A stretch of 64,000 nt of DNA from NCBI GenBank assembly GCA_963525605.1, contig CAURKZ010000004.1, positions 95,379 through 159,378 of the forward strand, written 5' to 3'. Position 1 is the first letter of the stretch; each line of letters opens with the position of its first letter. The notes beneath the pieces were generated by a model. The model made no database searches, was not told the DNA's origin, and saw only the letters and a program-made list of their open reading frames with translations. This document shows, piece by piece, positions 6,639 to 61,600 of the stretch. Origin of the DNA: an uncultured Campylobacter sp. GTDB lineage: Bacteria > Campylobacterota > Campylobacteria > Campylobacterales > Campylobacteraceae. A program made the translations under genes and the position numbers.

Positions 6639-6794
6639 AATTTCCCCTTAGAATTAATTAGGAGGATTATATCTTAAATCAAATTAAATCGAAATTTTAC
6701 ATGGCGGGCGGGTAAAATTTATATAAATTTAGCCCGCAAGCCTTGAAATTTGAGCAAATTTAGAAGATAAATGCGTATTTAGAATTTTAAAGCT

Positions 6795-10768: not shown

Positions 10769-11305
10769 ATTTTGGATTTGGAATTTCACTCAATTTAGAA
10801 TTTAGAATTCCGCTCAATTTGAAATTTAAAATTTGACTTGAGTTTGAAATTTTAAATTTGCCCGCGCCGCGAAATTTCGGAATTTTAGAATTTTGAGGTT
10901 TCAAATTTTAAAATTTTGCGCTCGTTATGAAATTTTAAATCCATACGCGTGGTGGAATTTTAAAATTTCGCCCCGCGGACGCCATTTCAAAATCAGGCGC
11001 CGCGCGCGCAAAATAGTAGAATTTTACGTAGCGGGTCGCCGCATCATTCAAAACGGCGCCTATACGCGTTTGTGGAATTTTAAATTTGACGTAAAAGGTA
11101 GGCTGGCAAATGCGACGAAATTTATCGAACACACGGAGTGGTTTTAAATTTAGCCAAACGCCTTCTATTTTAATAGCGTGGAAACGACACAACGCGCGCT
11201 ACATTTTTAAATTTAGCCAAGTGCATCGCGCCGCTAAAATTTAAAATTTCGCGCCGCGAATTGAGCTGTAAATAGAGCCGCAAATTTAAACTACGCATCA
11301 AAATT
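10769..11305. repeat. spacer filled with AAATTT/AAAATTT-core repeats
   Basis: Dozens of gaaatttnaaatttt / ggaattttaaaatttcgc-type motifs flanked by short GC-rich blocks. ORFs here translate to KF/NF/LN low-complexity strings. Confidence 0.7.
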
Positions 11306-22653: not shown

Positions 22654-23159
22654 AAAAGAGCCTTTGATATGATTTTAGAGCGCGATTTTACAAGCTTAAC
22701 TTAAATTATCGGTAAAGCGAGGCAAAATTTAACGCAAATGTTTAGCGATTTACGAGGCGATTTAAAATTTTAAATTCTAGCGATTTTAGAATCTCAAAAT
22801 TTATGAGCTTTAAAATTCAGTGGCGCGCTAAATCCTATGCAGCGAAATTCCGTGCGCGACAAAGCGGCGTTTATCGTCTATATCGTAACCTTTAAAATTT
22901 CAATATAAAATTTCTTTAAATTATGCTAATGGCTTGTATTGATTTTTTAGAACTCTTATGCTTAAAATTTTACCATACGAATGGAATTTTAAACTATCTT
23001 GATAACTAAAACTTTAAAAAGTCCCAAGTAAGCTATGCGTTCAAATTTTATCCTAAGCCGAGCGGAATTCCAATTAAAATTTAGCTCAACCCGCTTACAA
23101 TAATTCGGCTGCAAATTAGCGCGACAAGAAAAGTCAAAATTGCAGCGTTACTAAATTTT

Positions 23160-23191
23160 AAGGCGTGCGGTGAAAATTCTACACACGCCTT
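23160..23191 (-). terminator. hairpin directly downstream of bamA (weak terminator candidate)
   Basis: AAGGCGTG-16 nt-CACGCCTT, 21 nt after the bamA stop. The trailing sequence on the minus strand is only moderately T-rich (TAAAATTTAG). Confidence 0.35.
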
Positions 23192-23211
23192 AATGTTCGC
23201 AATTGCCGCGT

Positions 23212-39386: not shown

Positions 39387-40497
39387 AGGGTTTAAATTTA
39401 CGCTTTTTAGCGCGATTTTCATCATCGGCGCTTTTATAAGCGAGAGTCTTTATATAATCTATTTAAATTCCAAAATCGAGGAGAGCGCCGACGTCGCCGA
39501 GCTGATACAAAAAAGCAGCGAAGCTCTAAGCGGAGCGTATCCCGATCTAAAAGACGAGCTAATTTACGACTACGCGATCCTAAACGCAAACGGCGAAATT
39601 TTAAGATCAAACCTAAGCGTCCAACCGCCGGATTTTGCATTTATCACGCTGAAATTTGGCGGACGGGTATTTTTTAAGCGCCACTTTCTGCATGAGGGCA
39701 AGCTGTATTTTTTCGTAATCTCAAAAAAGATAAGCTACGCCAAGATAGAATTTATCGCGATCTCTACGATCTTTATCACGATTTTCGTAGCGCTCATCAT
39801 CGCGCTGTTTAACTACAAAATCATAAAAAATTTCTACGCGCAGCAAAGCAACCTCATCAAGGCGTTTTTCAACGACGCGATGCACGAGCTAAAGACCCCT
39901 CTGGGCGTCGCGCTCATCAACACTGAGATGCTTGGGCTGCGCGACAAACACACTGCGCGTATCAAATCCGCACTCAAGCAGATGGTAATTACTTACGAGG
40001 ACGTGGAGTACTTCATCAAAAGCGGCAAGATGAGCTTCAAAAGCCGTCGCATCGATATGAGCGAGTTTTTGGGCGCTAGGATAAATTTCATCTATCTGGT
40101 CGCAAAAAGCAAAAACATAAGCCTACAATCGCGAATAGCGCCAGATGTGAGCGTTTTTATGGACGAGACCTCGCTTATGCGCCTCATCGATAACACCCTA
40201 AGCAACGCCATAAAATACTCGCGCCCCGGCGGCAAGATCATCATCGGGCTGGAAAAAGGGGTGAGCATAGCGGTCTTTAGCGTGCAGGACTTCGGCATCG
40301 GCATAAAGGATACGAGCGCGATCTGGGATAGATACTCGCGCGAAAACGCGGCTCTTGGCGGATTCGGCCTCGGGCTAAACATAATCGATAAAATTTGCAA
40401 GCGCTACGGAATCGCAAAAAGCGTCAGCTCGAAGCTCGGTGAGGGCAGCACCTTTTGCTACAAAATCCCGCTGTTTAAGCAGAAACTTTTGGACTAA
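39379..40497 (+). CDS. sensor histidine kinase
   Basis: ATG at 39379 overlaps the RR stop. Two TM helices flank a ~110-aa periplasmic segment. H-box FFNDAMHELKTPL, N-box LSNAIKYS, G-boxes DFGIGI / GFGLGLNI. Confidence 0.85.
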   Translation: MLKGFKFTLFSAIFIIGAFISESLYIIYLNSKIEESADVAELIQKSSEALSGAYPDLKDELIYDYAILNANGEILRSNLSVQPPDFAFITLKFGGRVFFKRHFLHEGKLYFFVISKKISYAKIEFIAISTIFITIFVALIIALFNYKIIKNFYAQQSNLIKAFFNDAMHELKTPLGVALINTEMLGLRDKHTARIKSALKQMVITYEDVEYFIKSGKMSFKSRRIDMSEFLGARINFIYLVAKSKNISLQSRIAPDVSVFMDETSLMRLIDNTLSNAIKYSRPGGKIIIGLEKGVSIAVFSVQDFGIGIKDTSAIWDRYSRENAALGGFGLGLNIIDKICKRYGIAKSVSSKLGEGSTFCYKIPLFKQKLLD

Positions 40498-40588
40498 AAC
40501 GGCACGTAAATTTAGGCGCAAATTTAAAATTTTAAAAGTAAAATTTACGCGGCTAGGGCTTTTTAAAATTTCGTTTTGAAGCGGCTTT

Positions 40589-41419
40589 TCAGCCACCCTT
40601 ACCTAAACTATTTGCTATATCTTCAGGATTATAACTTACATCATAATCCAAATTTCCGCAATTATCTATATCGCCTATATTTAATCTTGGATATGAATAT
40701 TTTGATTGTCTAATTTCCGAATTAAACATTTTTTTATCAAGTATCATATTTCTAGCGCTACTATCATAAAAATTGTAATGAAGTATAAAATTATATCCAT
40801 ACGCAATCTTTTTGTCTCTTAATATTATTGCATTATCTAATATAATGATACCGCTCCAACCGTTATTTGCTAAAAAGATAGGTTTGTCAAATCCAGCCAC
40901 CATTCTATTCAAATCAATTTTTAAATATTTTATCGGATTTGTTTTTTTGATTTTTAATTTATCAAATAATAATATATTTCTAGCTTTTTCATCCAAATCT
41001 GATTTATATTCATCATCTTTGATTAAGCTATATAAATCTTTATAGTAATTTATTGTCTTTTCTAGCCAATTATCTAAATTTATATCGTCAGCCAATTCGT
41101 AATATCCAATTTTAATCTTGCTTTTCATTGACGAACCATATGCATAAATTCTTGCTTTATCCATCTTTTGTTCATATATTAGTTTCTTATCTAAAAACTG
41201 AACTATAGCCCTTCTATAGAACTCCTCTTTATCTAAAATTCTATTCTCGGCTAAACAATAACCTTGTTTGTATTTGTTATAGCCAAAAACGGAAACGACG
41301 GCGAAGCCTCGTGAAGTGGAGTAATCAGGGATTGTTCGGATAAACGCGGCGCAGAGTATTATTATAAGAAGTAGCGCTCCAGCTAGCGCTTTAAATTTAA
41401 CGGATTTATAAAATTTCAT
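40589..41419 (-). CDS. signal-anchored hypothetical protein, tandem paralog 1
   Basis: 276 aa, AT-rich. The N-terminal 60 aa are nearly identical to the next gene (MKFYKS.KFKALAGALL...IPDYSTSRGFAVVS.FGYNKYKQGYCL). Ends ...KGG. Confidence 0.6.
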   Translation of the reverse strand: MKFYKSVKFKALAGALLLIIILCAAFIRTIPDYSTSRGFAVVSVFGYNKYKQGYCLAENRILDKEEFYRRAIVQFLDKKLIYEQKMDKARIYAYGSSMKSKIKIGYYELADDINLDNWLEKTINYYKDLYSLIKDDEYKSDLDEKARNILLFDKLKIKKTNPIKYLKIDLNRMVAGFDKPIFLANNGWSGIIILDNAIILRDKKIAYGYNFILHYNFYDSSARNMILDKKMFNSEIRQSKYSYPRLNIGDIDNCGNLDYDVSYNPEDIANSLGKGG

Positions 41420-41467
41420 ACCGACGCTCCTTTTAAAATTTAAAATTTCAGTTGTTTACTCGGCTTT

Positions 41468-42292
41468 TCAGCCGCCTTTAAACAAATCTTCTCTTACCAG
41501 GCGATCCGCTATTTCTTCGATATTGTTTTTATAAATTTTAAAATCGCTATTGCCGCATGTATCGATTTTTAAATAATAATTCTTTTCGCGCGATTCATTT
41601 TCTATGGTGTTATCATAATATTGTTTCCCTTCAGACAAATCTTTTATGGTATCTCCTTCGTATATCGTAATCGTGGCATATCTAAATTCAAAATTATCAT
41701 ACAATATAAAGCTTTTATCGAAATATAAAATATATTCGCGCAAACCGCCGTATTCTACTATAGGCTCTTCGAAGCCAGCCATTCTATTATTTAAATTTAT
41801 CTTTAGCTTCTCCGCGATATCTACGGGCTTTATTTGAAATTTCTCGACAAAGATATTTCTATATGGCCAAGCGGCTTGATTTTTACGTTTTTCTATATCG
41901 TATTCTTTGGATAGAACCTCCAGCCAATCATCGTTATTAAATTTATCCGTCTCATAAAAGCCTACCTTAACGGCAAATTCTCCATTGCCGTAGTTGCAAG
42001 TCTTGCTGCCGTATACATAGTAGCATTTGTCGGTAACGACGGCTTGAAACAGCATACGTCTATTTAAAAGATCTAAAATTCCGCGCTTAAATCGCTCCTC
42101 TTTGGGTAAAATTCTATCCTCTTTTAGGCAGTATCCTTGCTTATATTTGTTGTAGCCAAAGATAGAAACGACAGCGAAGCCTCGTGAGGTGGAGTAATCG
42201 GGGATGATGCGGATGAATGCGGCGCAGAGTATTGTTATAATAAGCAACGCCCCTGCCAGGGCCTTAAATTTAATAGACTTATAAAATTTCAT
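41468..42292 (-). CDS. signal-anchored hypothetical protein, tandem paralog 2
   Basis: Start placed at the MKFYKSIKF ATG (42292). The sequence upstream of it is identical to that upstream of paralog 1. 274 aa; ends ...FKGG. Confidence 0.6.
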   Translation of the reverse strand: MKFYKSIKFKALAGALLIITILCAAFIRIIPDYSTSRGFAVVSIFGYNKYKQGYCLKEDRILPKEERFKRGILDLLNRRMLFQAVVTDKCYYVYGSKTCNYGNGEFAVKVGFYETDKFNNDDWLEVLSKEYDIEKRKNQAAWPYRNIFVEKFQIKPVDIAEKLKINLNNRMAGFEEPIVEYGGLREYILYFDKSFILYDNFEFRYATITIYEGDTIKDLSEGKQYYDNTIENESREKNYYLKIDTCGNSDFKIYKNNIEEIADRLVREDLFKGG

Positions 42293-48615: not shown

Positions 48616-48778
48616 CGTGTAAATTTTAAAGACAAAATTTCAAGCAGAGCGTTAGAATTTAAAAATTTTTTAAATTCTATCTTTCATTAAAGATCAATAT
48701 TCTACGGATTAAATTATTTATCCCTCGACATGCCAATTATGTGCCGTTTATATATTTTTTAGACCTTATCTTTTGTTT

Positions 48779-49495
48779 TTAGAATTTCATAAATTTGTTC
48801 ATTTTATTCACTATTATTTTTGCGATATCATAAGGCGGTTTCCAAAATAAATATCCCTCTGTAATATCTATATTTAGCGTATCCAAGAAATATTTTTGCA
48901 GCTCATCAAACTCCTTTTTACTATTGATCGTAAATAGTTCGGAATCGGAGCCATTGCATATCAGTAATTTATCACAAAGCAAGAACCTAGCGGTTTTCTC
49001 AAACAGAATATAGTAGAGAAATTTAATAATAGGCATAAGCGACAAGCCCATAATTATAAAAATAAACATATAAAATTTAAAGTTGTATAATGCCACGACG
49101 ATCATTATAAATAAAACTAAAACAGAAAATTTAATTTTCACATCAAATGGCGCGAAATTGGGAATCATATAAGCATATCTGTAAACGGAGATATTTTTTA
49201 ACGCCATCTCTTTTTCGCATTTTGTTTTATTTTTAAATTCTATTTTGTCCTTCATAAAGGTTATCGTTTTTTTGCTATTTATAAAGCTCGCTGCGTATAT
49301 AAAGAAAAATGCGGTACCATAACTTAGTAATATTTTCATATAAAACCTAAATTTATACTCGCCGCCAAAATTCTGTATCAAAGAACAAATTAACAAAATT
49401 CCAAGAGCTATCAGCCAAAACAGATCGTCTAGCTTTTTTATAACTATCGGATCTTTGTCGTAATCTCTGGCTTTTTGTTTATTATAATTTTCCAT
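48779..49495 (-). CDS. polymorphic membrane-protein family, short member (starts at the conserved junction box)
   Basis: 238 aa, AT-rich, own SD (AGAGGGG). MENYNKQKARDYDKDPIVIKK then 4 TM helices. C-terminal KEFDELQKYFLD matches the tails of the two long paralogs. Confidence 0.55.
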   Translation of the reverse strand: MENYNKQKARDYDKDPIVIKKLDDLFWLIALGILLICSLIQNFGGEYKFRFYMKILLSYGTAFFFIYAASFINSKKTITFMKDKIEFKNKTKCEKEMALKNISVYRYAYMIPNFAPFDVKIKFSVLVLFIMIVVALYNFKFYMFIFIIMGLSLMPIIKFLYYILFEKTARFLLCDKLLICNGSDSELFTINSKKEFDELQKYFLDTLNIDITEGYLFWKPPYDIAKIIVNKMNKFMKF

Positions 49496-49617
49496 TATTT
49501 CAAGCCCCTCTTTAAAAATAGATATAAATTTGTAATAGCTTAATTGACAAAAGACTTTTATATACGTTGCCTGACTCTTTCTTCGCGACCTTTTCTCTTC
49601 TCATTTTATCCTTCTCG

Positions 49618-50706
49618 TTAGATAAACAAGTAATCTTTCTTAACGTTATTTATATTTACGCTTTTCCGTAAAAAATATTCTCTAATTTCATCATAAATTT
49701 TTTGATTATAGACGTAAACGAGATAATATCTTGGATAAACGGGTTTGTTCCTAAACCATCTGCCATACGAGGGGCGTGCGATCCTAATAAACGGCAGAGC
49801 CTTAAACCCTTTTAAATTCATATTTATAAACAGATAAAGTATAAAATTTAATAAAAACCCGAATAAATATGTAAAGAATATCGCTATAAAAAATATATTC
49901 CACCATGTTACGCACATAAAAATAGCGATAAAGTACAAAAATATCTTTTCAGATTTTCCTATCTCATATGAACTTGCCAAAATTCCGATAGAGAAATTTA
50001 AAGATAAAGCGTTTTCGTCAATTTCGCAGCGTTTTTCAACCAATCCGTCGCTAATGAATTCTATATAATTGTTTGCAAATTTTATCTCTTGTCTAGGGCG
50101 GATTATGGTAAATACGGATATTATAACCATAGATAGTAAAATAATAAATAAAATAGCAAAATACTGGACCATGTCAATATCTTCATGATTTATAAAATCT
50201 ATAATTAAAAATGCATGTAGCGTAGAAGTCGGCAATAATAGGACTAAAAACGAATATACAAAAAATTTTTCATAATTTTTGATTGCTATCGGATCTTTGT
50301 CATAATCTCTAGCCTTGGAATTTTGCTGCAAAGAGCCGCTGTCATTTGAGATAAAATTTTGCGGCTCCATGCTGTTTTTACAGGCAGAATTCTGATCCGC
50401 TTCGGTTTCTAATTCGGCTTTTAAATTTAAAGCGTCAAGATCGGAATTTATGGTTTCAGAATTTGAAGCTTCGAAATTTGAAAATTTATAATTCAAGAAT
50501 TTAGAATTTGAGACTTCGGAATTCGGGGATTCAAAATTCAGGAATTCAGAATTCGAAGCTTCAAAATTTGAGGCTTCGGAATTTATGGTTTCAGAATTCG
50601 GGGCTTTAAAATTTTCGCCGTTAGAATTTTGTTCCAAGCCCCGCTTCGGCTCTTGATGTCGCTTTTGTAGTGGCTTTTTTAATTCATCTAGCCTGCTTTG
50701 ATCCAT
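49618..50706 (-). CDS. polymorphic membrane-protein family, long member A
   Basis: 362 aa. Conserved N-terminus MDQSRLDELKKPLQKRHQEPKR, pentapeptide N-S/F-E/K repeats, junction QQNSKARDYDKDPIAIK, then 4 TM helices and tail IYDEIREYFLRK. Confidence 0.6.
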   Translation of the reverse strand: MDQSRLDELKKPLQKRHQEPKRGLEQNSNGENFKAPNSETINSEASNFEASNSEFLNFESPNSEVSNSKFLNYKFSNFEASNSETINSDLDALNLKAELETEADQNSACKNSMEPQNFISNDSGSLQQNSKARDYDKDPIAIKNYEKFFVYSFLVLLLPTSTLHAFLIIDFINHEDIDMVQYFAILFIILLSMVIISVFTIIRPRQEIKFANNYIEFISDGLVEKRCEIDENALSLNFSIGILASSYEIGKSEKIFLYFIAIFMCVTWWNIFFIAIFFTYLFGFLLNFILYLFINMNLKGFKALPFIRIARPSYGRWFRNKPVYPRYYLVYVYNQKIYDEIREYFLRKSVNINNVKKDYLFI

Positions 50707-50806
50707 TTGCCGCCTTTAAATTTGATGGATGCGCCATTTTATACCCCCACTACTTAAAGCTCAGTAAATTTTACCACTCGCCCGCTGCGCGCCGTTTGAT
50801 CAAAAT

Positions 50807-51832
50807 TTAGCTCTCATATCTTTGCAGCGATTTTTTATATGTTTTCGCCGCAGCGCAGCCCGTGCTCAGATATACCTCAAACTCCTCGCTAGTAAGCCTG
50901 CGCGGCTCATTCGCAAGCCTCGCCGCGCCCGCTGCACCGCTTGGCGTATTTGCGTCCAGATTCGCTTCATTTACGATCTCACCTCGTCGGATTCGGTTGC
51001 TAAAGCCCGCTGCACGCGCTATTTGCGGCGCACGCCGTAGCGAAAAATTTAAATTTCGCGTTTGCAGATTTAAAATTTTACCCATGCATTTGCGCGGACC
51101 CGCGATAAAATCGCCATTTTGTATAAGCGGGGCGGCGGAGCCGAGCAGGTCGCTCTCTGCCAAGCCGTGCAAGCCGCCTGCCGAGCTGGGTAAGCAGCCC
51201 GTCAAACCCGATAAACCGCCCGCCAAAAGTTCTGCGCCGCTTAGGATACGTAGGCTTCGCACCAAAATCCCGCCGCCGCTTTGAGGGACGCTGCGAAACG
51301 AAATGTCAAAGCCGAAATTGTGAAAAAATATCTCGCCCGCCCGCGACGTGCGCTTGTAGGTGTTGCGATCCGCGCCCGTGAAATACGCCTCGATCTCCGC
51401 GAAGGCGAATTCCGCGCCGCTTACGCAAAGCACATAGTTTTGCAGCAGATCGTGCATGAAATTTTGAATCTTTGCCTGCGCTCGTTCGGCATCAAACTGC
51501 GCCTGCGACGGATGGGCACTTAGCCCTGCCTGCGATGGACGGACGTTAAATTTTAAGTGTGCTTGTTCCGTATCAAGACGCACTTTCTCGGCATCAAACG
51601 GCAGCTCGGTATTAAATTTTAAAATTTCATCTTGCTGCGCGCCGCTAAAATATGGCTGTCCGTCGCAAAATTCCGCGCCACCTTGTGATTTTAAAGGCTT
51701 GTTGCCGCTCCCGTCTCTCGCGCTTCCTGCAAGTTTGGGATTTTTTGAAGCGAGCTTTGAGCCCGCCGAAATTCCAAACTCCGCCGCGTCGATTTTTGAG
51801 AAAAATTTTTCTAAATTTTCATCGCCCAGCAT
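50807..51832 (-). CDS. hypothetical protein with weak resemblance to 3-methyladenine DNA glycosylase (Mpg/AAG fold)
   Basis: 341 aa. The central AEIEAYFTGADRNTYKRTSRAGEIFFHNFGFDISF...GILVRSLRIL...IAGPRKCMGKILNL parallels Mpg blocks (ETEAY..., VLIRA, GPGKL..ALGI). Long N-terminal extension and low-complexity insert. The call is tentative. Confidence 0.4.
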   Translation of the reverse strand: MLGDENLEKFFSKIDAAEFGISAGSKLASKNPKLAGSARDGSGNKPLKSQGGAEFCDGQPYFSGAQQDEILKFNTELPFDAEKVRLDTEQAHLKFNVRPSQAGLSAHPSQAQFDAERAQAKIQNFMHDLLQNYVLCVSGAEFAFAEIEAYFTGADRNTYKRTSRAGEIFFHNFGFDISFRSVPQSGGGILVRSLRILSGAELLAGGLSGLTGCLPSSAGGLHGLAESDLLGSAAPLIQNGDFIAGPRKCMGKILNLQTRNLNFSLRRAPQIARAAGFSNRIRRGEIVNEANLDANTPSGAAGAARLANEPRRLTSEEFEVYLSTGCAAAKTYKKSLQRYES

Positions 51833-52334
51833 TTTGCTCTTCCGTAGAATTTCCTTCGCGCTTTATCGAGCTCGCCTTGTTGCCCATAGTGTCGGATTCG
51901 CCGTTGTTTGCCTCGGCGCGCGTTAAATTTCTCTCGCCGTCTGTTGCGTTCATATCACCTCGCACTAAATTACCGCCGCTACTTGTCGTATTTGTTTCGC
52001 CGCCTTTAAAATTTGGAGCTTCGCAGCGATCTACGCCTAAACGTTCAAAATAATATCTCTCTCGCTCACCTAAGTTTTCCACTCCCCTTTCGCATACACG
52101 CTTGATATACGCCTTGCTAGGGTATCTAAGCCGATTGAGCGCCAATTCACTACCCGCGTCTGCGCGCTTTATCAGCTTAGCGATGCAGGCATCATCCTCT
52201 TCACTATTTGCGATATAATCCCATACGCCACAGTATCTATCACCGCCCAGCGTCGTAATCAAAAAATAAGCCCAAAGCAGGATTATGGCAATCGATATGC
52301 TTCCTTTTATTTTTAAAGATCTCTTTTTTACCAT
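51819..52334 (-). CDS. signal-anchored Cys-motif protein with N-glycosylation-sequon-rich tail, tandem paralog 1
   Basis: 171 aa. TM helix, four conserved Cys, core DDACIAKLIKRADAGSELALNRLRYPSKAYIKRVCERGVENLGERERYYF. The tail holds ETNTT, DMNAT, ERNLT, EGNST. Confidence 0.6.
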   Translation of the reverse strand: MVKKRSLKIKGSISIAIILLWAYFLITTLGGDRYCGVWDYIANSEEDDACIAKLIKRADAGSELALNRLRYPSKAYIKRVCERGVENLGERERYYFERLGVDRCEAPNFKGGETNTTSSGGNLVRGDMNATDGERNLTRAEANNGESDTMGNKASSIKREGNSTEEQNAGR

Positions 52335-52422
52335 GTTTTTCCTTGAGTAATAAATTTTAACTCATTTTTTCACAAATTTGACCAACGACATAAAATTTAC
52401 GATATCGCCCTCAAAGCTAATC

Positions 52423-52962
52423 TTATCGCCCAGCATTTTGCTCTTCCGTAGAATTTCCTTTGCGCTTCGTTTTGTCCGCCTTGCTGCCCACAGTGTCGGA
52501 TTCACCGTTGTTTGCCTCGGCGCGCGTTAAATTTCCGCTATCCGTTGCGTTCGTATCGCCTTGCGCTAAATTACCGCCGCTACTTGTCGTATTTGCTTCG
52601 CCGCCCTTTGATTTGGGCGTTTTAAAGCCCCAAATCTCGCAGCGATCCCCGCTAAAGCCTTGGAAATAATATCTCTCACGCTCGCTCAAGTTTTCTACTC
52701 CCTTTTCGCATGTGCGCTTGATATATGCCTTGCTAGGGTATCTAAGTCGACTGAGCGCCAATTCACTACCCGCGTCTGCGCGTTTTATCAGCTTGGCTAC
52801 ACAGGCATCATCCTCTTCGCCCTTGTTGTTTAAAAAAGATTCCCAAATGTTGCAATACGCGCCACTGTTGTTTATATATAGGGTGCACAGAATAACAACC
52901 CCTACGATTAACAAAAAAATTTGACTTTTACTAGCTTTCAATTTCGCTTTATCGCCCGGCAT
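52423..52962 (-). CDS. signal-anchored Cys-motif protein, tandem paralog 2
   Basis: 179 aa. Same core as paralog 1 (DDACVAKLIKRADAGSELALSRLRYPSKAYIKRTCEKGVENL). The tail holds EANTT, DTNAT. Identical ...NSTEEQNAGR end. Confidence 0.6.
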   Translation of the reverse strand: MPGDKAKLKASKSQIFLLIVGVVILCTLYINNSGAYCNIWESFLNNKGEEDDACVAKLIKRADAGSELALSRLRYPSKAYIKRTCEKGVENLSERERYYFQGFSGDRCEIWGFKTPKSKGGEANTTSSGGNLAQGDTNATDSGNLTRAEANNGESDTVGSKADKTKRKGNSTEEQNAGR

Positions 52963-53455
52963 TTAATCCTCCCGTAGAATTTACATCGCGTTTGATCGCA
53001 CCTGTTTCATTGCGGACTGTATTCGCACCTTCGCGCGTTAAATTTGCTCTGCTATCCGTTGCGTCCGTATCGCCTTGCGCTAAATTACCGCCGCCACTCG
53101 TCGTATTTGCTTCGCCGCCCTTTGATTTGGGCGTTTTAAAGCTCCAAGCGCTACAACGATCTTTACTATAACGCTCGAAATAAAATCTTTCTCGCTCACC
53201 CAAGCTTTCCACTCCCTTTTCGCACACTCGCTTGATATATTCCATAGTTGGGTATCTAAGCCTACTTTCTGCAAAACTATTTCCGTCGTCCGCTCGCTTT
53301 ACCAGCTTGGCGATGCAGGCATCATCTTCCTCATCATGCCTGCCTGAAAAAAATTCTCTCGCGCTACAATACCCGCCGCTACCGCTTACAAACGCGGCAT
53401 AAATAATAATAAGCGCCAAAATTAGCACAAAAACATGACTTTTACCGATTTTCAA
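52949..53455 (-). CDS. signal-anchored Cys-motif protein, tandem paralog 3
   Basis: 168 aa. Core DDACIAKLVKRADDGNSFAESRLRYPTMEYIKRVCEKGVESL. The tail holds EANTT, DVNST. Its 3' end overlaps the paralog 2 start and its 5' end overlaps the SDR stop. Confidence 0.6.
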   Translation of the reverse strand: MKIGKSHVFVLILALIIIYAAFVSGSGGYCSAREFFSGRHDEEDDACIAKLVKRADDGNSFAESRLRYPTMEYIKRVCEKGVESLGERERFYFERYSKDRCSAWSFKTPKSKGGEANTTSGGGNLAQGDTDATDSRANLTREGANTVRNETGAIKRDVNSTGGLNAGR

Positions 53456-54110
53456 GCTCGCCTCCTTCGCGATTAAATTTTGATTTTTTCCGCAGGTTTA
53501 CGATCTGCGGGCGAATCGTAAACTCGCTTACATTGGACTTCGTGCGCAGAATTTGCAGCACAAAATTTGCGATCTCCTCCGCATCCACGAAACTAGCCTC
53601 ATCATCCGCGGGCTCGAAGCTCAAATCCTCGTAAAAGGGCGTTTTGGTGATACCCGGGTTGATGCAGCTTACTCTGATCTGCTTGCGCGCCTCCTCGAAA
53701 AGGCAGAGCAGAAACGCCCGCAGTCCCGCCTTGCTCGCGCTATAAACCGCGCTAAAGCGGCTCGCTCGCAGCGCCTCGATCGAGCTAATGCCGATGATAT
53801 GGGCGCGGTTGCGCTTTAAATTCGGCAAAAGCGCGCGCGCGATGATGATGTTTGCGGCAAGATTTACGTTTAAAATTTTTAAAATTTCGCTCTCGCTCAT
53901 CGCTTCAAGCGGCGCAAATTTCGTCGTACCCGCGCACAAAATCAGCGCGTCAATCTCACACGCCGCAGCCAGCGCGCGACACTCTTTTGCCAGCGCGTCC
54001 AGATCTTCGAAGCGCGAGGCTAGCGTTAAAATTTCATAGCCGTTTTGTCGCAAAAGCTCCGCAACCGCGCTGCCGATACCGCCGTTTGCGCCCGTGATCA
54101 ATGCTTTCAT
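53442..54110 (-). CDS. short-chain dehydrogenase/reductase
   Basis: 222 aa. TGANGGIG cofactor motif and YSASKAG (YxxxK) catalytic motif. Confidence 0.85.
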   Translation of the reverse strand: MKALITGANGGIGSAVAELLRQNGYEILTLASRFEDLDALAKECRALAAACEIDALILCAGTTKFAPLEAMSESEILKILNVNLAANIIIARALLPNLKRNRAHIIGISSIEALRASRFSAVYSASKAGLRAFLLCLFEEARKQIRVSCINPGITKTPFYEDLSFEPADDEASFVDAEEIANFVLQILRTKSNVSEFTIRPQIVNLRKKSKFNREGGELENR

Positions 54111-54474
54111 CTTTTCTCCTTTAAATTTTCATGCCGCTTCGGCGCGTTAAGCTTAGCGCGTCACGTAAATTTCGCTGCGCTAAATTTTCTTTGTTCATTG
54201 TGTCCGCCGCTAAATTTGCGCGGATTATTTAAACCGCGCCGCGACTTCGCCGGGTAAAATTTTAAATTTAGCCCGCGGACGTTTTGCTGCGCCGCCGCTT
54301 TGTAAAATTTCATCGCCGCTCGCCGTGCCCGCCCCGCACGATTTATAAAATTTAATTTTATAAAACTCGGCGCACCGCTAAATTTTAACCGCTCGCTCGC
54401 CGCAAATTTCGCGCCGTATTCTCGGCGCCGCATGCGAGCCGGTACAGGCCGCGACGTCTGCGGCAAACAGCGCC

Positions 54475-55749
54475 CTAACGCTGCCGTATCTTCGCGAAAT
54501 ACGCCGCCTTCATCGCTTCCTCAAATGCGTCGTTGCTTTCGTACTCGTGCCCCAAGACCTCGCGCCACAGGCTCGCATCCTCCATGCAGAGGTAGAAAAA
54601 CACCCACTCGCGCCACGGCGAAAGCGCGTCTGCGGCAAATTTGAAAAGCTCGCGCTTGATCTGCGGCGGGTAGGACAGCTTGCCGTTCGCGTCCGCAAGG
54701 GGCATCTGCAGAATTTTGCTCCGCAGCCCGCGCGAGCGCAGCTTCTTGACGACGGGCTTGATGAAAGTAAGCGTGCCGAGCGAGACCATCGCGACGCCGC
54801 TTGGATCGAAGCTGCGTAGCAGCCGCTCAAAAAGCGCGCCGTAATCGTTTTGCCACCCCTCGTACCAAACCATCGGGTGGAAGTGAAAGCCCACTAAAAT
54901 GCCGTGAGCCGCGAGCGCTTCTGCCGCCGCCAGCCGCGCATCCAAGCTCGCGCTTAGATGCTCCTCGTTCGCTATGATCGCGGGCGTATTTAGCGAAAAG
55001 GTGACGATGAGATTGCGCGGGATCTCGCGCTGCAGGAAAAACTTAATATTGTTCGACTTGCTTTTAAGCTCCAAAATCACGTTTTGATGCCGCGCCGCGA
55101 AGTCCGTTAGCGCGCTTAAAATGCCGAAGCGATCGCCCCACATGAGCGAGTCGGAGCTCTGCCCCGTGCCGATGTGATAGCTGCGCGCGGAATCGAGCCG
55201 CAGGCGCGCTAAATTTGCCGCAAAATTCTCGTCAAAGCCGATTTTCCCGTGCTTGTAAAAGGAGCCGATCGCGCAATAGGAGCAGTCAAAGCCGCACGAA
55301 TTAACGGCATCGAGCGTCAGCAGATTGCAGCAGCGCGTGTTTTCGCTCGCCACCGGACAGCGGCCTAAAGCGATGCGGTCCGCGCGAAAGGAGGAAATTT
55401 CAAATTTTTTTGGCGCGTAATCGCTTTTGAAGCCTGCGTACGAGTGCGGGCGCGACTTTAGCTCAAGCCAAGCCTCGCGCACGAAATTAAAAATTTTCTC
55501 GCCGCTTGGAACTTTCCCCGTTTTATTAAATTTGGCTTTATTAAAATTTAGCCCGCACTGCTCGCTTGCAAGCAGCTCATAAACGGGCGTCTCGTCCCAC
55601 GCCTCAAAATCGCTCGCAAACTCCGCTAGCTGCTTTCGTTGCTGAAATGAAAAGTGAAATTTCTCAAATAGCGCGTCCAAAAACGCGCTTGATCGCTCGC
55701 TCAGATTCACGCCAAACTGCGCGCCTAGCTCCTTTTTTGCCTCCGTCAT
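54475..55749 (-). CDS. radical SAM protein, spore-photoproduct-lyase (SPL)-like family
   Basis: 424 aa. CGFDCSYC (CxxxCxxC) cluster. HIGTGQSSDSL and FHFHPMV blocks resemble SPL-family proteins. ~130-aa N-terminal extension. Confidence 0.65.
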   Translation of the reverse strand: MTEAKKELGAQFGVNLSERSSAFLDALFEKFHFSFQQRKQLAEFASDFEAWDETPVYELLASEQCGLNFNKAKFNKTGKVPSGEKIFNFVREAWLELKSRPHSYAGFKSDYAPKKFEISSFRADRIALGRCPVASENTRCCNLLTLDAVNSCGFDCSYCAIGSFYKHGKIGFDENFAANLARLRLDSARSYHIGTGQSSDSLMWGDRFGILSALTDFAARHQNVILELKSKSNNIKFFLQREIPRNLIVTFSLNTPAIIANEEHLSASLDARLAAAEALAAHGILVGFHFHPMVWYEGWQNDYGALFERLLRSFDPSGVAMVSLGTLTFIKPVVKKLRSRGLRSKILQMPLADANGKLSYPPQIKRELFKFAADALSPWREWVFFYLCMEDASLWREVLGHEYESNDAFEEAMKAAYFAKIRQR

Positions 55750-55822
55750 CTTGCTCCGCTTCGTTTAAATTTTGCAAATTATACTTAAATTTCACGCGTC
55801 ATCACTGAAAATCGTTGAAATT

Positions 55823-56302
55823 TCAGATCGCATCATAGAATAGTCGCTCGAAATAGAAGGCGTAAGCTAGCGTGATAGCAACGTTTAGGATCAAAATTCC
55901 GCCGAGTATGAGCTTTTGCGGGATTTTTTTGACGCCCGTTCGGTAGTAATACGGCAGGGCGCAGAAAAACGCGGGCAGCACGAGCAGAACGATGCCTAGC
56001 GGCATGCCCGCACCGCCCACGCCTATCTCCGCACTGCGCACGAACTGCGACATGGCGGGGAATTTAAGGGCGGCGAAAATGGCCGCCGCAAAGAGTAGCT
56101 GCACGCAGAAGCAGTAAAATAGGTAGCGCGCGCCTATTAGAGCGTCTTTTAGCCATAGCCCGATACAGGCAAATGCGAGCAAAAGGGCTAAAAAGACTAG
56201 CGAGGACAGATCGGCAAACAGATCCGCCGCGGCATACGCGCAAGCTGCGATGCATGCGCACGCCAAGAGGGCAAAATACAGATAAGAGCCTTTTATTTTC
56301 AT
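55823..56302 (-). CDS. hypothetical 5-TM membrane protein
   Basis: 159 aa, strongly hydrophobic, Ala/Leu-rich. No motif recognised. Confidence 0.5.
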   Translation of the reverse strand: MKIKGSYLYFALLACACIAACAYAAADLFADLSSLVFLALLLAFACIGLWLKDALIGARYLFYCFCVQLLFAAAIFAALKFPAMSQFVRSAEIGVGGAGMPLGIVLLVLPAFFCALPYYYRTGVKKIPQKLILGGILILNVAITLAYAFYFERLFYDAI

Positions 56303-56405
56303 CGTTTCTCCTGCGCCCCCGCAATACCTTCAAATTCCGCGTCGTATTCGGCATATGAAGCTAAAATTTATCTCTCGGCTGGGTTTTTTGCGCACGCATC
56401 CATAG

Positions 56406-57566
56406 TTAAATTTTGCCTTTTATTGCGGCGCGGATTTGCGGCAGACGCGCCTTTATGAGCTCATAGACGAAGCGTTTGCAAAGCCGCTCGCCGCCCAAAT
56501 GATCGCTTGCGATCTTCATCATCGCCCACGGCACGCCCGCGCGCTCGCAAGCACTAACAAAAATCGCGCTCTCCATATCGTAAAGCCTGACGCCGCGATT
56601 TGTGCGCCCGCAGGTAGCGTCCTTTGCCGTGCACGGCGTATTTTGCGCTGCTCGTGCTGCGGTATTCGTCGCAGCGCTGCACTCACCTACCGCGATTTGT
56701 GAGGGTTTTGCGCTCGCTAAATTTTGCGCCGCGGCCTGCGTCGCGCTTTGTGTCGCAACCCGCGTCGCGCCTTGCGTGAAATTTTTTGTATCTGCCGCGC
56801 CGCTCATCCCTTGCGTTGTGGCTTGTGCGTTTATCTCGCCGCACGCCTCGATCGCTGCGATATTTGCTGCGCTCGCCTGCTCCGCTGCGTTTAAAATTTT
56901 AGGCTTGTTTACGCAGATCAAATTTGCCCGCAGCTTACCGTCCAAACTCGCGCCGCAAAATTCCCGCTCGCAAACGTTTTGAAATTTTAGAGCCTGCTCG
57001 CTGTGTTCCCCAACCTGCGAGCGATAAAATTTCGATCCGTCCTCGCCGCAAAATTCCTGCGCTGCCGTGCCGTCAAAGTAAAAGGCCTCGCCGATTTGCA
57101 CGCTTGTATCCTCACAGCCGCAGATGCCTATGTTTAGCGCAAAGTCCACGTGCCGCGAAAGTAAAATTTCACCAAAGCGCTCTGAATTCTGCGCGGAGTT
57201 AAAATTTAAAATTTCAAAATTTTCAGTCGCATTTAGCGCGAAGCCAGTTTCTACATCGCCGCCGCAGAGCGCGCCCGCGTCCGAAGAATGCTTAAATTTT
57301 GCGTCCGCGCCGCGTTGGTTCTCGCGAAGCTCGCGCCCGAATTCTACGTCTGTATCGGCACGGCGAATAAATTCCGCGCCGGATTCGCTCTTAAATTCTA
57401 TTTCTATGTCGCCTGCAGCACCCGTTTTAAATTTAGCCCCAAACCTCACGCCGCAGATGTATAGAAGCATCTGCTCGCCTGCGAACAGATCGCCGCTGCG
57501 AGTAAGTTTAAAACTCTCGATCATCGCTTGGGCTTCGCAGCGCAAAGCCGTGCAGATTAGTATCAT
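56406..57566 (-). CDS. PNP_UDP_1-type nucleosidase-like protein (MTAN/futalosine-hydrolase-like) split by large low-complexity insertions
   Basis: ATG at 57566 after a GAAGGGG SD. N-terminal MILICTALRCEAQAMIESF, internal LNIGICG, and C-terminal LYDMESAIFVSACERAGVPWAMMKIASDHLG match the family blocks. The rest is Ala/Gln/Thr- or KF/EF-rich filler. Confidence 0.55.
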   Translation of the reverse strand: MILICTALRCEAQAMIESFKLTRSGDLFAGEQMLLYICGVRFGAKFKTGAAGDIEIEFKSESGAEFIRRADTDVEFGRELRENQRGADAKFKHSSDAGALCGGDVETGFALNATENFEILNFNSAQNSERFGEILLSRHVDFALNIGICGCEDTSVQIGEAFYFDGTAAQEFCGEDGSKFYRSQVGEHSEQALKFQNVCEREFCGASLDGKLRANLICVNKPKILNAAEQASAANIAAIEACGEINAQATTQGMSGAADTKNFTQGATRVATQSATQAAAQNLASAKPSQIAVGECSAATNTAARAAQNTPCTAKDATCGRTNRGVRLYDMESAIFVSACERAGVPWAMMKIASDHLGGERLCKRFVYELIKARLPQIRAAIKGKI

Positions 57567-57640
57567 CGCCGCCCCTTCCAAAAGCGCAATTTTAACAATT
57601 TGAGCTATAATGTAAGATTAATTTGCACAAAAGGGCGAAA

Positions 57641-60487
57641 ATGAACGATCTCATCACCATCACTGGCGCGCGCGAACACAATCTGAAAAATATAAATTTG
57701 CAAATTCCGAAGGATAAACTCGTCGTTTTTACCGGTCTTAGCGGCAGCGGCAAGAGCACGTTGGCGTTTGATACGCTATATGCCGAGGGGCAGCGCAGAT
57801 ACGTCGAGAGCCTAAGCAGCTACGCGAGGCAATTTTTAGACCGCGTAGGCAAGCCCGACGTCGATAAGATCGACGGTCTGACGCCTGCGATCGCGATCGA
57901 TCAAAAAACGACGTCGAAAAACCCGCGCTCTACGGTGGGCACGATCACCGAAATTTATGACTATCTGCGCCTCTTATATGCGCGCGTAGGGGTGCAGCAC
58001 TGCCACAAATGCGGCAAGCCGATCTCAAAGATGAGCTCCAGCGACATCATCGCCGAGATTATGAAGCTGCCGAGTGGCGCGAAGGTGATTTTGGGCGCGC
58101 CCTTGGTGCGCGAGAAAAAGGGCAGCTTCGCCGATATGTTGCAAAGCTTGCGCGAGCAGGGCTACGTGCGCGCTCAGATCGACGGCGTGCTAGTGCGACT
58201 GGACGAGGAGATCGAGCTGAGCAAGACGAAAAAGCACTCGATCAAGGTCATCATCGACCGCACGATCATCGACGAGGAAAATTCCATCCGTATCGCAAGC
58301 GACGTTGAAAAGGCGCTCAAGCTCAGCTTCGGCGAGCTTGAGGTGGAGATCGCAAACGCCGCCGAGCTTGGGCTCGCGCAGAGCCTGATCCACTACAGCG
58401 AGCATATGGCGTGCTTTGATTGTAAAATTTCATTCAAGCCGCTCGAACCGCTCGCGTTTAGCTTCAACTCCCCAAAGGGCGCGTGCGAGAGCTGCGATGG
58501 GTTGGGGATAAAATTTAGCCTCGATCTGGGCAAGATCATTAACGAAAATGCCTCGATCGAGGGCGGCGCGATCAAGGTAATGTCGGGATTTAACAAGAGC
58601 TATTACTATAAATTTTTGCTCGGATTTTGCGAAGCAAACGGCATAAACGTCAAAATCCCGTATGCAAGCTTAAGCGAGGAGCAAAAAAAGCTGATCCTCT
58701 ACGGCAGCGTCAAAGAGATCGATTTTTACTGGAAAAAGCATAAGCTCGTGCGTAAATTTGAGGGCGCGATTAAATACGCCTACGATCTGCTCAAAAACGA
58801 AAGCGATCTGGACGATTATATGAGCGAAAAAATCTGCCCAGACTGCGGCGGACTGCGCCTGCGTCCCGAAAGCCTAGCCGTAAAGGTCGCGGGGAAAGGC
58901 ATCGGCGACGTGATAAATATGAGTATTGCAGACTGCGTGGAATTTTTCAGCGACGAGAAGCGGTTTTCAAATTTAAGCGAAAAGGACGCGCAGATTGCGG
59001 CGCCGATCCTAAAAGAGATCAACGAGAGGCTGTTTTTCTTAAAGGACGTTGGGCTTGGATACCTCACGCTTGGGCGCGATGCGCGCACCATCAGCGGCGG
59101 CGAGGCGCAGCGTATCCGTATCGCAAGCCAGATCGGCTCTGGTCTTAGCGGCGTGATGTACGTGCTCGACGAGCCTAGCATCGGGCTTCACGAGCGCGAT
59201 ACGCAAAAGCTCATCAAGACGCTACGAAATTTACAGGAAAAGGGAAATTCCGTAATCGTCGTCGAGCACGATAAAAAGACGATCGAGGCGGCAGACTTCG
59301 TCGTAGATATCGGCCCAGGAGCGGGCAATCTAGGCGGCGAGGTCGTATTCGCAGGAGACGTCGCGCATCTGCTTAAAAGCAATACGCAAACCGCGCTGTA
59401 TCTGAACAACCAAAAGGAGATAAACTACCAAAAGCACCGCAAGCAGGAGCTTTGGCTAAGCATCAAAAACGTAAATATCAATAATATCCACGGCCTTTGC
59501 GCAAAATTTCCGCTGCGAAATTTAGTCGGCATCACGGGCGTTAGCGGCAGCGGCAAGAGCTCCTTGGTGCTGCAAACCATCCTGCCCACCGCGCTTGAGG
59601 AGCTAAATCGCGCTAGAAAGGTGCACGCGGTAAAGGGCGCTAAAATTTCGGGGCTTGAGAGCCTGGATAAAGTAATCTATCTGGATCAAACCCCCATCGG
59701 ACGCACTCCGCGCAGCAATCCCGCGACCTACACGGGGGTGATGGACGAGATCCGCGCGCTTTTCGCCGCGACGAAGGAAGCGCAGCTACGCGGATACAAG
59801 ATCGGTCGCTTTAGCTTCAACGTCAAAGGCGGGCGCTGCGAAAAATGCGCGGGCGAGGGCGAGATCACGATCGAGATGCACTTCCTACCCGATATCAGCG
59901 TCGTCTGCGACGTCTGCCACGGCACGAGATACAACGCGCAGACGCTTGAAATTTTATACAAAAACAAAAGTATAGCCGACGTTTTGGCGATGAGTATCGA
60001 CGAGGCGCTCGAGTTTTTCAAAGCCGTGCCTAAAATTTATCAAAAGCTAAAGACGCTCGCGGACGTCGGGCTCGGCTACGTTTCGCTAGGCCAGCCCGCC
60101 ACGACGCTTAGCGGCGGCGAGGCACAGCGCGTCAAGCTCGCCAAGGAGCTAAGTCGCACCGACACGGGTAACACGCTATATATCCTGGACGAGCCCACGA
60201 CGGGGCTGCATTTTGCAGACGTAGATCGCCTGGTAGCGGTGTTGCATCATTTGGTCGATCTGGGAAATTCCGTCTTTGTGATCGAGCACAATCTGGACGT
60301 CATCAAAAACTGCGATTATATCATCGACATGGGGCCTGAAGGCGGCGAGGGCGGCGGACGGATCGTCGCTTGCGGCACCCCAGAAAAGCTAGCAAAAGAT
60401 TTTAAAAAGACCGGTAGCTACACGGGGGAATTTTTGGCACAGGAGCTAGCGGCGATGAAAAGCGCAAGCAAAAATAAGCGAGGTTAA
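57641..60487 (+). CDS. uvrA: excinuclease ABC subunit A
   Basis: Two ABC modules (Walker [10 protein letters not shown] and GVSGSGKSS; signatures LSGGEAQR x2). Zinc modules CHKCGKP..., [14 protein letters not shown]...CDVCHG. Confidence 0.97.
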
Positions 60488-60508
60488 AACGCCTTATCAG
60501 GGGTAAGA

Positions 60509-61600
60509 ATGGATCAAAACAGGCTTGAGGAATTAAAAAGGTTACTACAAAAGCGACATCAAGAGCCGAAGCGGAGCTTGGAGCAAAATTCTAACGGCGA
60601 AAATTCTAAAGCCCCAAATTCTGAAATCCAGAATTCTGAAGTCTCAAATTTTGAAGCTTCGAATTTTAAAGCTCAAAATTCCGAAATCTCAAATTCTAAA
60701 TTCTTGAATTATAAATCTTCAGATTCTGAAGTCTCAAATTCTGAATCCATGAATTCTAAAGCTCCTAATTTCGCTACCGACGCTTTAAATTTAGAAGCCG
60801 AAGCGGATAAGAATTCCGCCTATGAAAATAACGCAGAGCCGCAAAATTTTATCTCGGATGGTAGCGGCTCTTTGCAACAGAATTCCAAAGCCAGGGACTA
60901 CGACAAAGAGCCGATAGTAATAAAAGATCATACTTATTACGAATTTATGATTTATCAATTTCCGGCGCTACTGGTAGGTTTTATTATATTTTTGACTTTT
61001 GCTACCATAGTAAATCCCGTTAGTCTTAAGACTTTTCGAATGCTTCCGTCTATATTGGTTTCATTGTTGACCGTAATTAGGGACAAAGACGGCATGTATT
61101 TTGAGTTTAAAAACGATAAAATTCTGTATTATTACAAAAACAAGATCCGTAAAATTTTAGAATTAAATAGTATAGGTGCGATGATAATTAGCTTTGATTG
61201 CAGGCACAGTATGCGGCAAAGGATAAATTGGTTTATAAAAATAGCACTACTTCTTTGGATTTTATTAATTTTTGCCGCCGATGCATACGATATGACAATC
61301 GGCGAAAGCATAACTGATATATTGTGTATTTTTGTTTTAGCTGCATCAGGAATTTTCGGAGCAAAGGCTATTATGCATCTGCTTAACGGTAGCCTCGGCT
61401 TTTTCGGTCTTCACGATCAGCTCGTGCTTTATAAGGAAAACGCCGAGGTTGAGATACTAAATATTTTGATGGCGAATAAAGAGGAGTATCTGCAGCTGAG
61501 AGATTATTTTATGCAGACGATGCAAAAAGATATAAGCAACCTGCAACGCACGATGTCGATTTTTAATGAAAAGATAGAATTTAGAAAATTTAAATTTTAA
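60509..61600 (+). CDS. polymorphic membrane-protein family, long member B
   Basis: 363 aa, 21 nt downstream of uvrA. N-terminus MDQNRLEELKRLLQKRHQEPKR plus pentapeptide repeats plus junction QQNSKARDYDKEPIVIK, then a diverged 4-TM module and tail EEYLQLRDYFMQ. Confidence 0.6.
   Translation: MDQNRLEELKRLLQKRHQEPKRSLEQNSNGENSKAPNSEIQNSEVSNFEASNFKAQNSEISNSKFLNYKSSDSEVSNSESMNSKAPNFATDALNLEAEADKNSAYENNAEPQNFISDGSGSLQQNSKARDYDKEPIVIKDHTYYEFMIYQFPALLVGFIIFLTFATIVNPVSLKTFRMLPSILVSLLTVIRDKDGMYFEFKNDKILYYYKNKIRKILELNSIGAMIISFDCRHSMRQRINWFIKIALLLWILLIFAADAYDMTIGESITDILCIFVLAASGIFGAKAIMHLLNGSLGFFGLHDQLVLYKENAEVEILNILMANKEEYLQLRDYFMQTMQKDISNLQRTMSIFNEKIEFRKFKF

Follow-up and report, generated by a model that had tools for sequence, protein, structure and literature searches.

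Tandem paralogues of an undescribed Campylobacter membrane-protein family probably recombine at a conserved structural motif

How do paralogous genes that have diverged almost beyond recognition come to share one short, nearly identical stretch of DNA, and what happens at that stretch? Three genes raise this question within a 64,000-nt window (the whole stretch of DNA analyzed; contig CAURKZ010000004.1 of an uncultured Campylobacter sp., positions 95,379–159,378). A sequence-only reading of the window had described them as a polymorphic membrane-protein family, in which a shared 5′ module ends at a conserved box and is followed by hyper-diverged modules with four transmembrane (TM) helices. 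All three genes were confirmed as open reading frames (ORFs). Gene A (49618..50706, minus strand; 362 aa) and gene B (60509..61600, plus strand; 363 aa) each encode an N-terminal extension (N-module), the box and a 4-TM module, of type A and type B, respectively; gene C (48779..49495, minus strand; 238 aa) is a box-first short paralogue with a type-C module. We consider it likely that A, B and C are paralogues in an undescribed inner-membrane protein family, so far found in Campylobacter only, and that its tandem members recombine at the box, a conserved structural motif.

Three paralogues with a common box

The first 435 nt of A and 423 nt of B, which lie in inverted orientation ~9.8 kb apart, are 78.8% identical (blastn E 1e-106). 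An earlier estimate by eye, nine in ten nucleotides for the N-module, was right for the first 120 nt (27, 27, 28 and 27 of 30 in successive 30-nt blocks, ~90%) but too high for the ~435 nt as a whole, identity being lower in the repeat region and 24–25/30 (80–83%) over the 90 nt preceding the box. Directly past alignment column ~435, identity collapses to 5–17/30 per block, and the breakpoint lies at the box, as had been proposed.

The box encodes KARDYDK(D/E)PI and occupies 50276..50316 in A (minus strand; KARDYDKDPIAIK), 60887..60925 in B (plus strand; KARDYDKEPIVIK) and 49434..49474 in C (minus strand). A blastn comparison within the window matched the box of C to those of A and B, and 39–41 nt proved to be 85–90% identical among the three genes (E 5e-9 to 2e-7; B versus C, 89.7% over 39 nt), in agreement with the ~40 nt noticed before. 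Past the box, the three proteins are 21–29% identical, and blastp between module types gave marginal matches (E 0.02–0.09). One family profile, however, matched all three (E 1e-37 to 1e-49; 3e-49 for A and 6e-49 for B) and no other ORF of the window. Thus, A, B and C are true, if distant, homologues despite their low identity.

The box and the 5′ module aside, the last ~45 nt of B match a relic of the end of a G/B-type gene that lies 85 nt past the C stop codon (48652..48695, minus strand; blastn 87% to nt 1050–1092 of B). The 3′ end of a G module (one of the module types described below) in locus L036 also aligns there. Between A and C lies a leader, termed 'e' (49496..49617, minus strand), which holds the Shine–Dalgarno (SD) sequence of C (AAAGAGGGG) and the context of its start codon. 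This leader is conserved in 24 loci (median 90%), and a search of its minus strand for a terminator-like site found none. C therefore fits the earlier description of a box-first gene whose ATG is preceded by an SD of its own.

Rearrangements at the box in related loci

We compared related loci through a scan with one genome per species, which yielded 80 loci, all in assemblies of C. gracilis or 'uncultured Campylobacter sp.'. Every box was located, the surrounding ORFs were extracted, and the modules and flanking genes were typed. Box variants include ARDYDNEPI and AKDYDKEPI, and the modules behind the box are of at least eight types (A, B, B2, C, D, E, F and G). Identity between most types is 20–30% or undetectable, as against more than 85% within a type; B, B2 and G are a closer trio, which splits only when the identity threshold exceeds 60%. 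Across 24 loci, orthologues of type A share ~94% identity.

The family genes are found at locus 1, which runs from the p341 gene to the glyoxalase and PGI genes, and at locus 2, between uvrA and Sel1/PrfB. Modules stand behind three upstream contexts: the 3′ end of the N-module (written N+), the 'e' leader after A (e:) and a 'd' leader that begins 11 nt past the stop codon of D (d:). At locus 1, the states led by A are N+A e:D d:G, N+A e:D d:C, N+A e:C (the window), N+A e:G and N+A alone; the other states are N+D d:C, N+D d:G, N+D e:G, N+C and N+G. Nearly all of these are box-to-box deletion derivatives of an A-D-(C or G) array; deletion alone does not give N+D e:G. Locus 2 carries N+B, N+B2, N+E or N+F. 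Each of the three upstream contexts precedes modules C, D and G in different genomes, and nucleotide alignments place the switch always within the box. The proposal that 3′ modules are reassorted between strains and loci was thereby borne out across the 80 loci.

One deletion can be followed at nucleotide resolution. A search with C found its module elsewhere either as a ~239-aa short protein or as an in-frame fusion behind an N-module at the box (P0002, P0004, P0005 and P0013). The contig encoding P0004, L001, shares the synteny of the window (uvrA ... p341, family gene, glyoxalase, PGI) and has a single N+C gene, the A/C fusion that the sequence-only reading had envisaged. At the nucleotide level, L001 equals the window minus the interval from the A box, the left breakpoint, to the C box, the right breakpoint, and the 41-nt box is the overlap of the two alignment blocks.

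Cassette replacement and exchange between loci use the same junction. C and G are alternative cassettes of a terminal slot that shares the box at its left and the 45-nt relic at its right. In L033, uvrA and a locus-2 N-module are joined at the box to a C module and the glyoxalase gene, the junction corresponding to the boxes of B and C. L047 has the order p341-N-box-B, with flanks swapped, and P0227 is a short gene that combines the 'd' leader with B2. Also, the N-modules form no locus-specific clades (identity 0.92/0.86 within locus 1, 0.90/0.83 between loci and 0.90/0.82 within a genome), and have therefore been homogenized between the inverted loci, or shuffled between them. Identity is 93–96% for flanking housekeeping genes and ~94% for same-type modules; hence the loci belong to one species complex, and the rearrangements are recent. 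As far as these alignments go, deletions, the replacement of cassettes and exchange between loci all have their junction at the box, which is a structural motif as well.

Predicted structure of the modules and selection on them

An exhaustive profile search recovered 151 representative clusters (50% identity) at E <= 1e-3, most of them spanning the whole module. Among the 10 clusters looked up, every name given was 'hypothetical protein', and the source was Campylobacter wherever an organism was given and an unnamed metagenome source otherwise. Scans of A, B, C, their neighbors and distant members against Pfam, NCBIfam, PADLOC and PHROGs gave nothing above noise, a PDB sequence-profile search returned no match at E <= 10, and we found no description of the family in the literature. 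The family is undescribed, and the earlier observation that no toxin, secretion or recombinase gene lies nearby held up in these scans of neighbors and members.

In a 111-member alignment, R10, Y12, D13 and P16 of the box and Y202 of a C-terminal Y-F motif are nearly invariant. Since the codons vary synonymously while the residues are fixed, the box is conserved as a peptide. Homogenization of DNA alone was rejected as the cause of its conservation, given this synonymous variation and the retention of the motif in distant members. From the same alignment, we obtained an AlphaFold (AF2) model of C with a predicted local distance difference test score (pLDDT) of 81.8, rising to 97 in the box region, and a predicted template-modeling score (pTM) of 0.76; an earlier model from a shallow 10-sequence alignment (pLDDT 49.5) was discarded. 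The modeled order is strand 1 (the box), TM1, TM2, strands 2–5, TM3, TM4, strands 6–7 and a C-terminal helix with the Y-F motif. On the alignments and the order in the C model, the type-A body (49618..50275, minus strand) would likewise comprise a TM hairpin, four strands, a TM hairpin, two strands and the C-terminal helix. The model and the conserved columns thus support the four TM helices and the C-terminal Y-F helix that had been described as common to the modules.

Foldseek comparison of the model with the PDB returned almost exclusively PH, PTB or double-PH domains as top matches (for instance the ARAP3 PH domain, TMt 0.58, root-mean-square deviation 2.6), the best of them non-significant (E 0.2); comparison with viral structures returned nothing. 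Because of the order of seven strands and a C-terminal helix, and of these consistent but weak matches, we regard the module fold as a probable PH-like beta-sandwich split by two TM hairpins. First of all, then, the box is modeled as a conserved structural motif, RDYDKxP[IL]xIK, which caps the domain and supplies its first beta-strand. Lys plus Arg counts under the positive-inside rule are 6, 10 and 11 on the beta-domain segments of the model, and 0 and 0 on its 6-residue and 1-residue loops. From this distribution, the beta-domain and the N-module are predicted to be cytoplasmic, with only 6 + 1 residues outside the cytoplasm. The earlier suggestion of variable surface proteins finds no match in a topology that is predicted to be nearly all cytoplasmic.

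Nor do the modules look like those of polymorphic toxin/immunity loci such as CdiA-CT/CdiI or Rhs, a reading under which each variable module would be a toxin or an immunity protein and each downstream copy an orphan module. At the level of gene organization the layout is alike (5′ part conserved, 3′ parts diverse, a short conserved motif at the junction, and extra junction-first copies), and the low G+C content of the modules, 29–35% against ~45–53% in the surrounding genome, would fit as well. However, the variable modules are mutually homologous and of one fold instead of being unrelated toxin domains, the N-module is merely 100–147 aa of low complexity, no small gene is paired with each module, and no toxin, Rhs, filamentous haemagglutinin or secretion domain was found in any member or neighbor. 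We therefore hold this explanation to be very unlikely.

The N-module itself appears to be a translated part of A and B. In A, it covers 50317..50706 (minus strand), a ~130-aa low-complexity extension, predicted to be cytoplasmic, with 79% nucleotide identity to the 5′ end of B. The N-S/F-E/K pentapeptides noted earlier correspond to an in-frame 15-nt tandem repeat, detected by Tandem Repeats Finder at 50444..50614 in A (minus strand; periods 15/30/45) and at 60586..60770 in B (plus strand). Across loci, the length of the N-module ranges from 100 to 147 aa in steps of 5 aa, that is, of one repeat unit, and this variable-number tandem repeat (VNTR) is always in frame. Frame 0 contains 0 stop codons, whereas the remaining frames hold 6.7 and 12.5 per module; the ratio of nonsynonymous to synonymous substitution rates (dN/dS) is 0.29–0.39, and the SD and ATG are conserved. 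On these grounds, we rejected the idea that the N-module is an untranslated frame that happens to be open through repeat DNA. Scans of it against Pfam, NCBIfam and PADLOC gave no match.

AT-rich repeats of the 'AAATTYYRAA' type are also dispersed in the window outside convincing ORFs (3959, 10780-10960, 22760-22820, 29117, 45213, 48076 and 57202). The degenerate pattern has 28 matches versus 0.15 expected, ~10 of them outside the two N-modules. The 15-nt coding repeat of the N-module resembles this dispersed repeat, from which the low-complexity extension may thus derive.

How would such genes rearrange? The C. gracilis complex keeps its paralogues in two inverted loci around a ~10-kb block with uvrA, the first gene of each locus carrying the low-complexity N-extension of 100–147 aa with its in-frame 15-nt VNTR. 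The conserved core of each protein begins at the box, which is modeled to cap and open a cytoplasmic PH-like sandwich interrupted by two TM hairpins. In the mechanism that we propose, selection on the peptide would keep ~40 nt of the box nearly identical in paralogues that are otherwise 20–30% identical, leaving it as the only usable homology between them and thus as the crossover point. In direct arrays, box-to-box recombination would remove the intervening genes, turning A-D-C/G into A-C, A-G, D-C, N+C or N+G; recombination between the box and the relic would swap the terminal cassette, C versus G; and recombination at boxes of the two inverted loci would trade modules between them. Strains would come to differ in the paralogues that they possess and in which of these carries the N-extension. 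Homologous recombination, or slippage between direct repeats ~0.76–0.84 kb apart, could resolve at the box; we infer one of a RecA-dependent, a slippage or a transformation-mediated pathway. Recovery of a lost module would require gene transfer.

The short copies bear on programmed cassette switching as a rival explanation. Within a type, intact modules have dN/dS of 0.12–0.24, and the short forms of C (0.21), D (0.20) and G (0.22) equal the fused forms. ATG and SD are conserved in the short genes, distant family members commonly take the box-first short form, and the gaps between adjoining modules are 11–122 nt, without a paired small gene (the successor of D begins 11 nt past the D stop). 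On this evidence from start signals and substitution rates, the short copies are genes and not silent cassettes, and the earlier comparison with silent or orphan cassettes behind CdiA/Rhs genes is not supported; the modules are, moreover, of one fold. More generally, divergence along A and B is not uniform, the 3′ module of a locus is not fixed across strains, and C is not a truncated pseudogene.

Programmed switching of the antigenic- or phase-variation kind (as in pilE/pilS or C. fetus sap) would have one expressed gene per locus and silent cassettes downstream, exchanged via the box or by inversion of the uvrA block. The conserved 5′ module, the sharp junction and the box-first copies downstream fit such a scheme, as do the inverted loci with ~430 bp at 79% identity, the N-modules homogenized between loci, and L033 and L047, which resemble inversion products. 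Yet each short copy begins at an ATG of its own behind its own SD, with the dN/dS of fused ones, box-first short proteins are standard in distant species, and each locus retains its own upstream region, so that no single promoter is moved. Deletion between direct repeats destroys the donor and is irreversible, and no recombinase is encoded nearby. With 6 and 1 residues predicted outside the cytoplasm, there would also be little variable for an external observer to see. We regard programmed switching as quite improbable.

Many alleles carry inactivating lesions of various kinds: indels (+2 and −1), a T6 tract lengthened to T7, an (AT)n expansion and a TAC codon turned into TAG. A further lesion, on 16 contigs, is an out-of-frame hybrid of D and C whose joint lies within the second TM helix and not at the box, with a truncated 208-aa product (e.g., L021 ~6379–6700; P0032). 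We rejected a single hypermutable tract as the source of phase variation, the lesions differing by site and only T6/T7 and (AT)n falling at short repeats. The inactivated alleles are compatible with a dispensable or a conditionally useful family.

The same lesions bear on neutral gene-family turnover, in which dispensable tandem paralogues are randomly deleted or inactivated, the box junctions are incidental and the variation is without adaptive value. Their heterogeneity, including the hybrid, would be expected of such turnover, and so would one-way deletions and the lack of a conserved partner gene. On the other hand, purifying selection acts on the intact copies of each type (dN/dS 0.12–0.24), discrete types that differ by 70–80% from one another are kept at ~94% identity across the species complex, and the family persists as 151 clusters in Campylobacter. 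Neutral turnover, which we judge somewhat unlikely, shares its genetic mechanism with recombination of paralogues at the box and differs from it solely on whether the variation matters.

Several points weigh against our preferred explanation, recombination of tandem paralogues of a new family at a structural motif. Many alleles are inactivated, chiefly at locus 2, which fits a dispensable family drifting neutrally too. All comparison loci are metagenome-assembled contigs, and those with swapped flanks (L008, L029, L033, L039 and L047) could include strain mixtures or misjoins; indeed, L029 and L033 come from one metagenome-assembled genome (MAG; CALHIK), both have the glyoxalase flank and they differ in the arrangement of family genes, which suggests a strain mixture in the bin and advises caution with MAG-derived rearrangements. 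The data consist of deletions and replacements between strains, with no switching within a strain, and the deletions are one-way barring gene transfer. The PH-like assignment rests on strand order and on Foldseek matches that are not significant. For the function, no conserved partner gene was found around the two distant members examined in their genomes; these genes are solitary and their neighbors unrelated.

What the proteins do is a matter for tentative suggestion. A loose parallel with proteins that combine TM hairpins and a PH domain and are linked to bacteriocin export and self-protection, together with the diversity and turnover of the paralogues, leads us to offer a guess that we think has a limited chance of being right: they could serve in protection or immunity at the membrane, with partners specific to each type. 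Such an array of immunity-like membrane proteins without a linked toxin would be the immunity-only counterpart of a toxin/immunity locus. A more elaborate version, which we consider distinctly unlikely, would make the two inverted loci a recombination-driven contingency system. Deletion, cassette replacement and inversion of the uvrA block would re-deal both the specificity type and the carrier of the N-extension, altering how the cell is protected from agents that act on membranes in a type-specific way (bacteriocins, contact-dependent effectors or phage, for example), and the structural motif would double as recombination signal with no dedicated recombinase.

Surroundings of the loci and comparison with known systems

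The segment between the inverted N-modules and boxes of A and B (50276..60925, ~10.6 kb) contains p341, three small paralogues, an SDR gene, a spore-photoproduct-lyase-like (SPL-like) radical-SAM gene, a PNP-like gene and uvrA; it is rich in genes of DNA-repair type, namely uvrA and the radical-SAM gene. The ATG of gene B lies 21 nt past the uvrA stop codon (60487-60509), with an SD, AGGGG, in the gap, so that uvrA and B may share a transcript. A gap of 100 nt likewise separates gene A from p341, which it follows. p341 (50807-51832, minus strand; 341 aa) is found upstream of locus 1 in all related genomes, and it has no match in Pfam, NCBIfam, PADLOC or PHROGs and no sequence relative in the PDB. 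The three tandem paralogues (51819-53455, minus strand) encode small proteins of 171, 179 and 168 aa with an N-terminal hydrophobic segment, a core with 'CIAKLIKRADAGSELALNRLRYPSKAYIKRVCEKGVENL' and a low-complexity tail rich in G, N and T. They vary in copy number from 1 to 4 across related genomes and match nothing in Pfam, NCBIfam, PADLOC or PHROGs.

In L039 (7250-9256), and also in L008, L043 and L064, the ~2.5 kb between two long family genes, of which the first is an additional N+B or N+B2 gene and the second again N-tagged, hold a gene for a putative 668-aa outer-membrane beta-barrel protein that resembles a TonB-dependent receptor; the window is without it. Two further low-GC stretches of the window are at 40001-42000 and 22001-24000 (0.36 and 0.39 vs ~0.45–0.53 elsewhere).

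If the module types are specificity determinants, the loci would offer a simple model for the reshuffling of immunity-like repertoires in oral and gut Campylobacter. If they are not, the loci still provide a marker for strain typing and a warning to annotators that the short genes are real and not fragments. In either case, a structurally constrained peptide motif would here be the sole recombination substrate of diverged paralogues, a natural example with the consequence that gene fusions, deletions and locus-to-locus swaps arise at the strain level without a recombinase.

Among known systems, CdiA-CT/CdiI and Rhs orphan arrays resemble the loci in having a conserved 5′ part, a short junction peptide motif and highly diverse 3′ parts, with extra junction-first copies further downstream, which recombination at the motif can fuse to the gene ahead of them. 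CdiA and Rhs proteins, however, have a large N-terminal delivery region (filamentous haemagglutinin repeats or an Rhs/YD core) and a secretion partner, whereas the extension here is short, disordered and optional, and the neighbors of the loci are PGI, glyoxalase, p341, SDR, SPL and uvrA, with no secretion partner. Their toxins are of unrelated folds, each with a cognate immunity gene, while the 4-TM modules here are unpaired. Their orphan modules lack a translation start of their own; the downstream copies here carry start signals, and purifying selection acts on them as genes in their own right.

Within the genus, the sap locus of C. fetus contains sapA homologues with conserved 5′ regions that are rearranged by DNA inversion. 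Like sap, the loci described here have oppositely oriented paralogues with a conserved 5′ region and a divergent remainder, A (minus) and B (plus) being inverted homologues over 435 nt at 79%, and 5′-region recombination re-pairs upstream sequences with different gene bodies; L033 fits this pattern, L033 and L047 both having swapped flanks in MAG assemblies. The sap genes encode secreted S-layer proteins and are served by a single promoter on the invertible element. By contrast, our family consists of small 4-TM membrane proteins that are predicted to face the cytoplasm, neither locus shares its upstream region or SD with the other, housekeeping DNA including uvrA lies in between, and the variation is mostly direct-repeat deletion and not inversion. 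In systems of the pilE/pilS type, the variable part is surface-exposed, whereas here it is predicted to be nearly all cytoplasmic. Contingency genes with simple repeats are turned on and off via one hypermutable tract; here the lesions are assorted and at different sites, and the 15-nt VNTR stays in frame.

At the protein level, members of the YdbS/YdbT-type bPH (PHb2) membrane proteins, which include DdE and DdF of the enterocin DD14 locus, have been linked to bacteriocin export or resistance (PMC8657885). They too are small bacterial membrane proteins with TM hairpins and a cytoplasmic PH-like domain, a combination that is predicted for our family. In YdbS/YdbT an intact PH domain follows the hairpin, and in YdbT the hairpin-plus-PH unit is repeated, whereas the model here has a single sandwich cut into three pieces by two hairpins; unlike DdE and DdF, the family has no bacteriocin genes nearby. 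Although 0/111 family members match the bPH Pfam models at E <= 1, and A, B and C do not either, bPH membrane proteins are the closest at the protein level. Recombination at a junction motif in a polymorphic gene array is known in kind; new here are an undescribed, unannotated Campylobacter membrane-protein family and its unusual predicted architecture, one PH-like sandwich threaded twice through the membrane.

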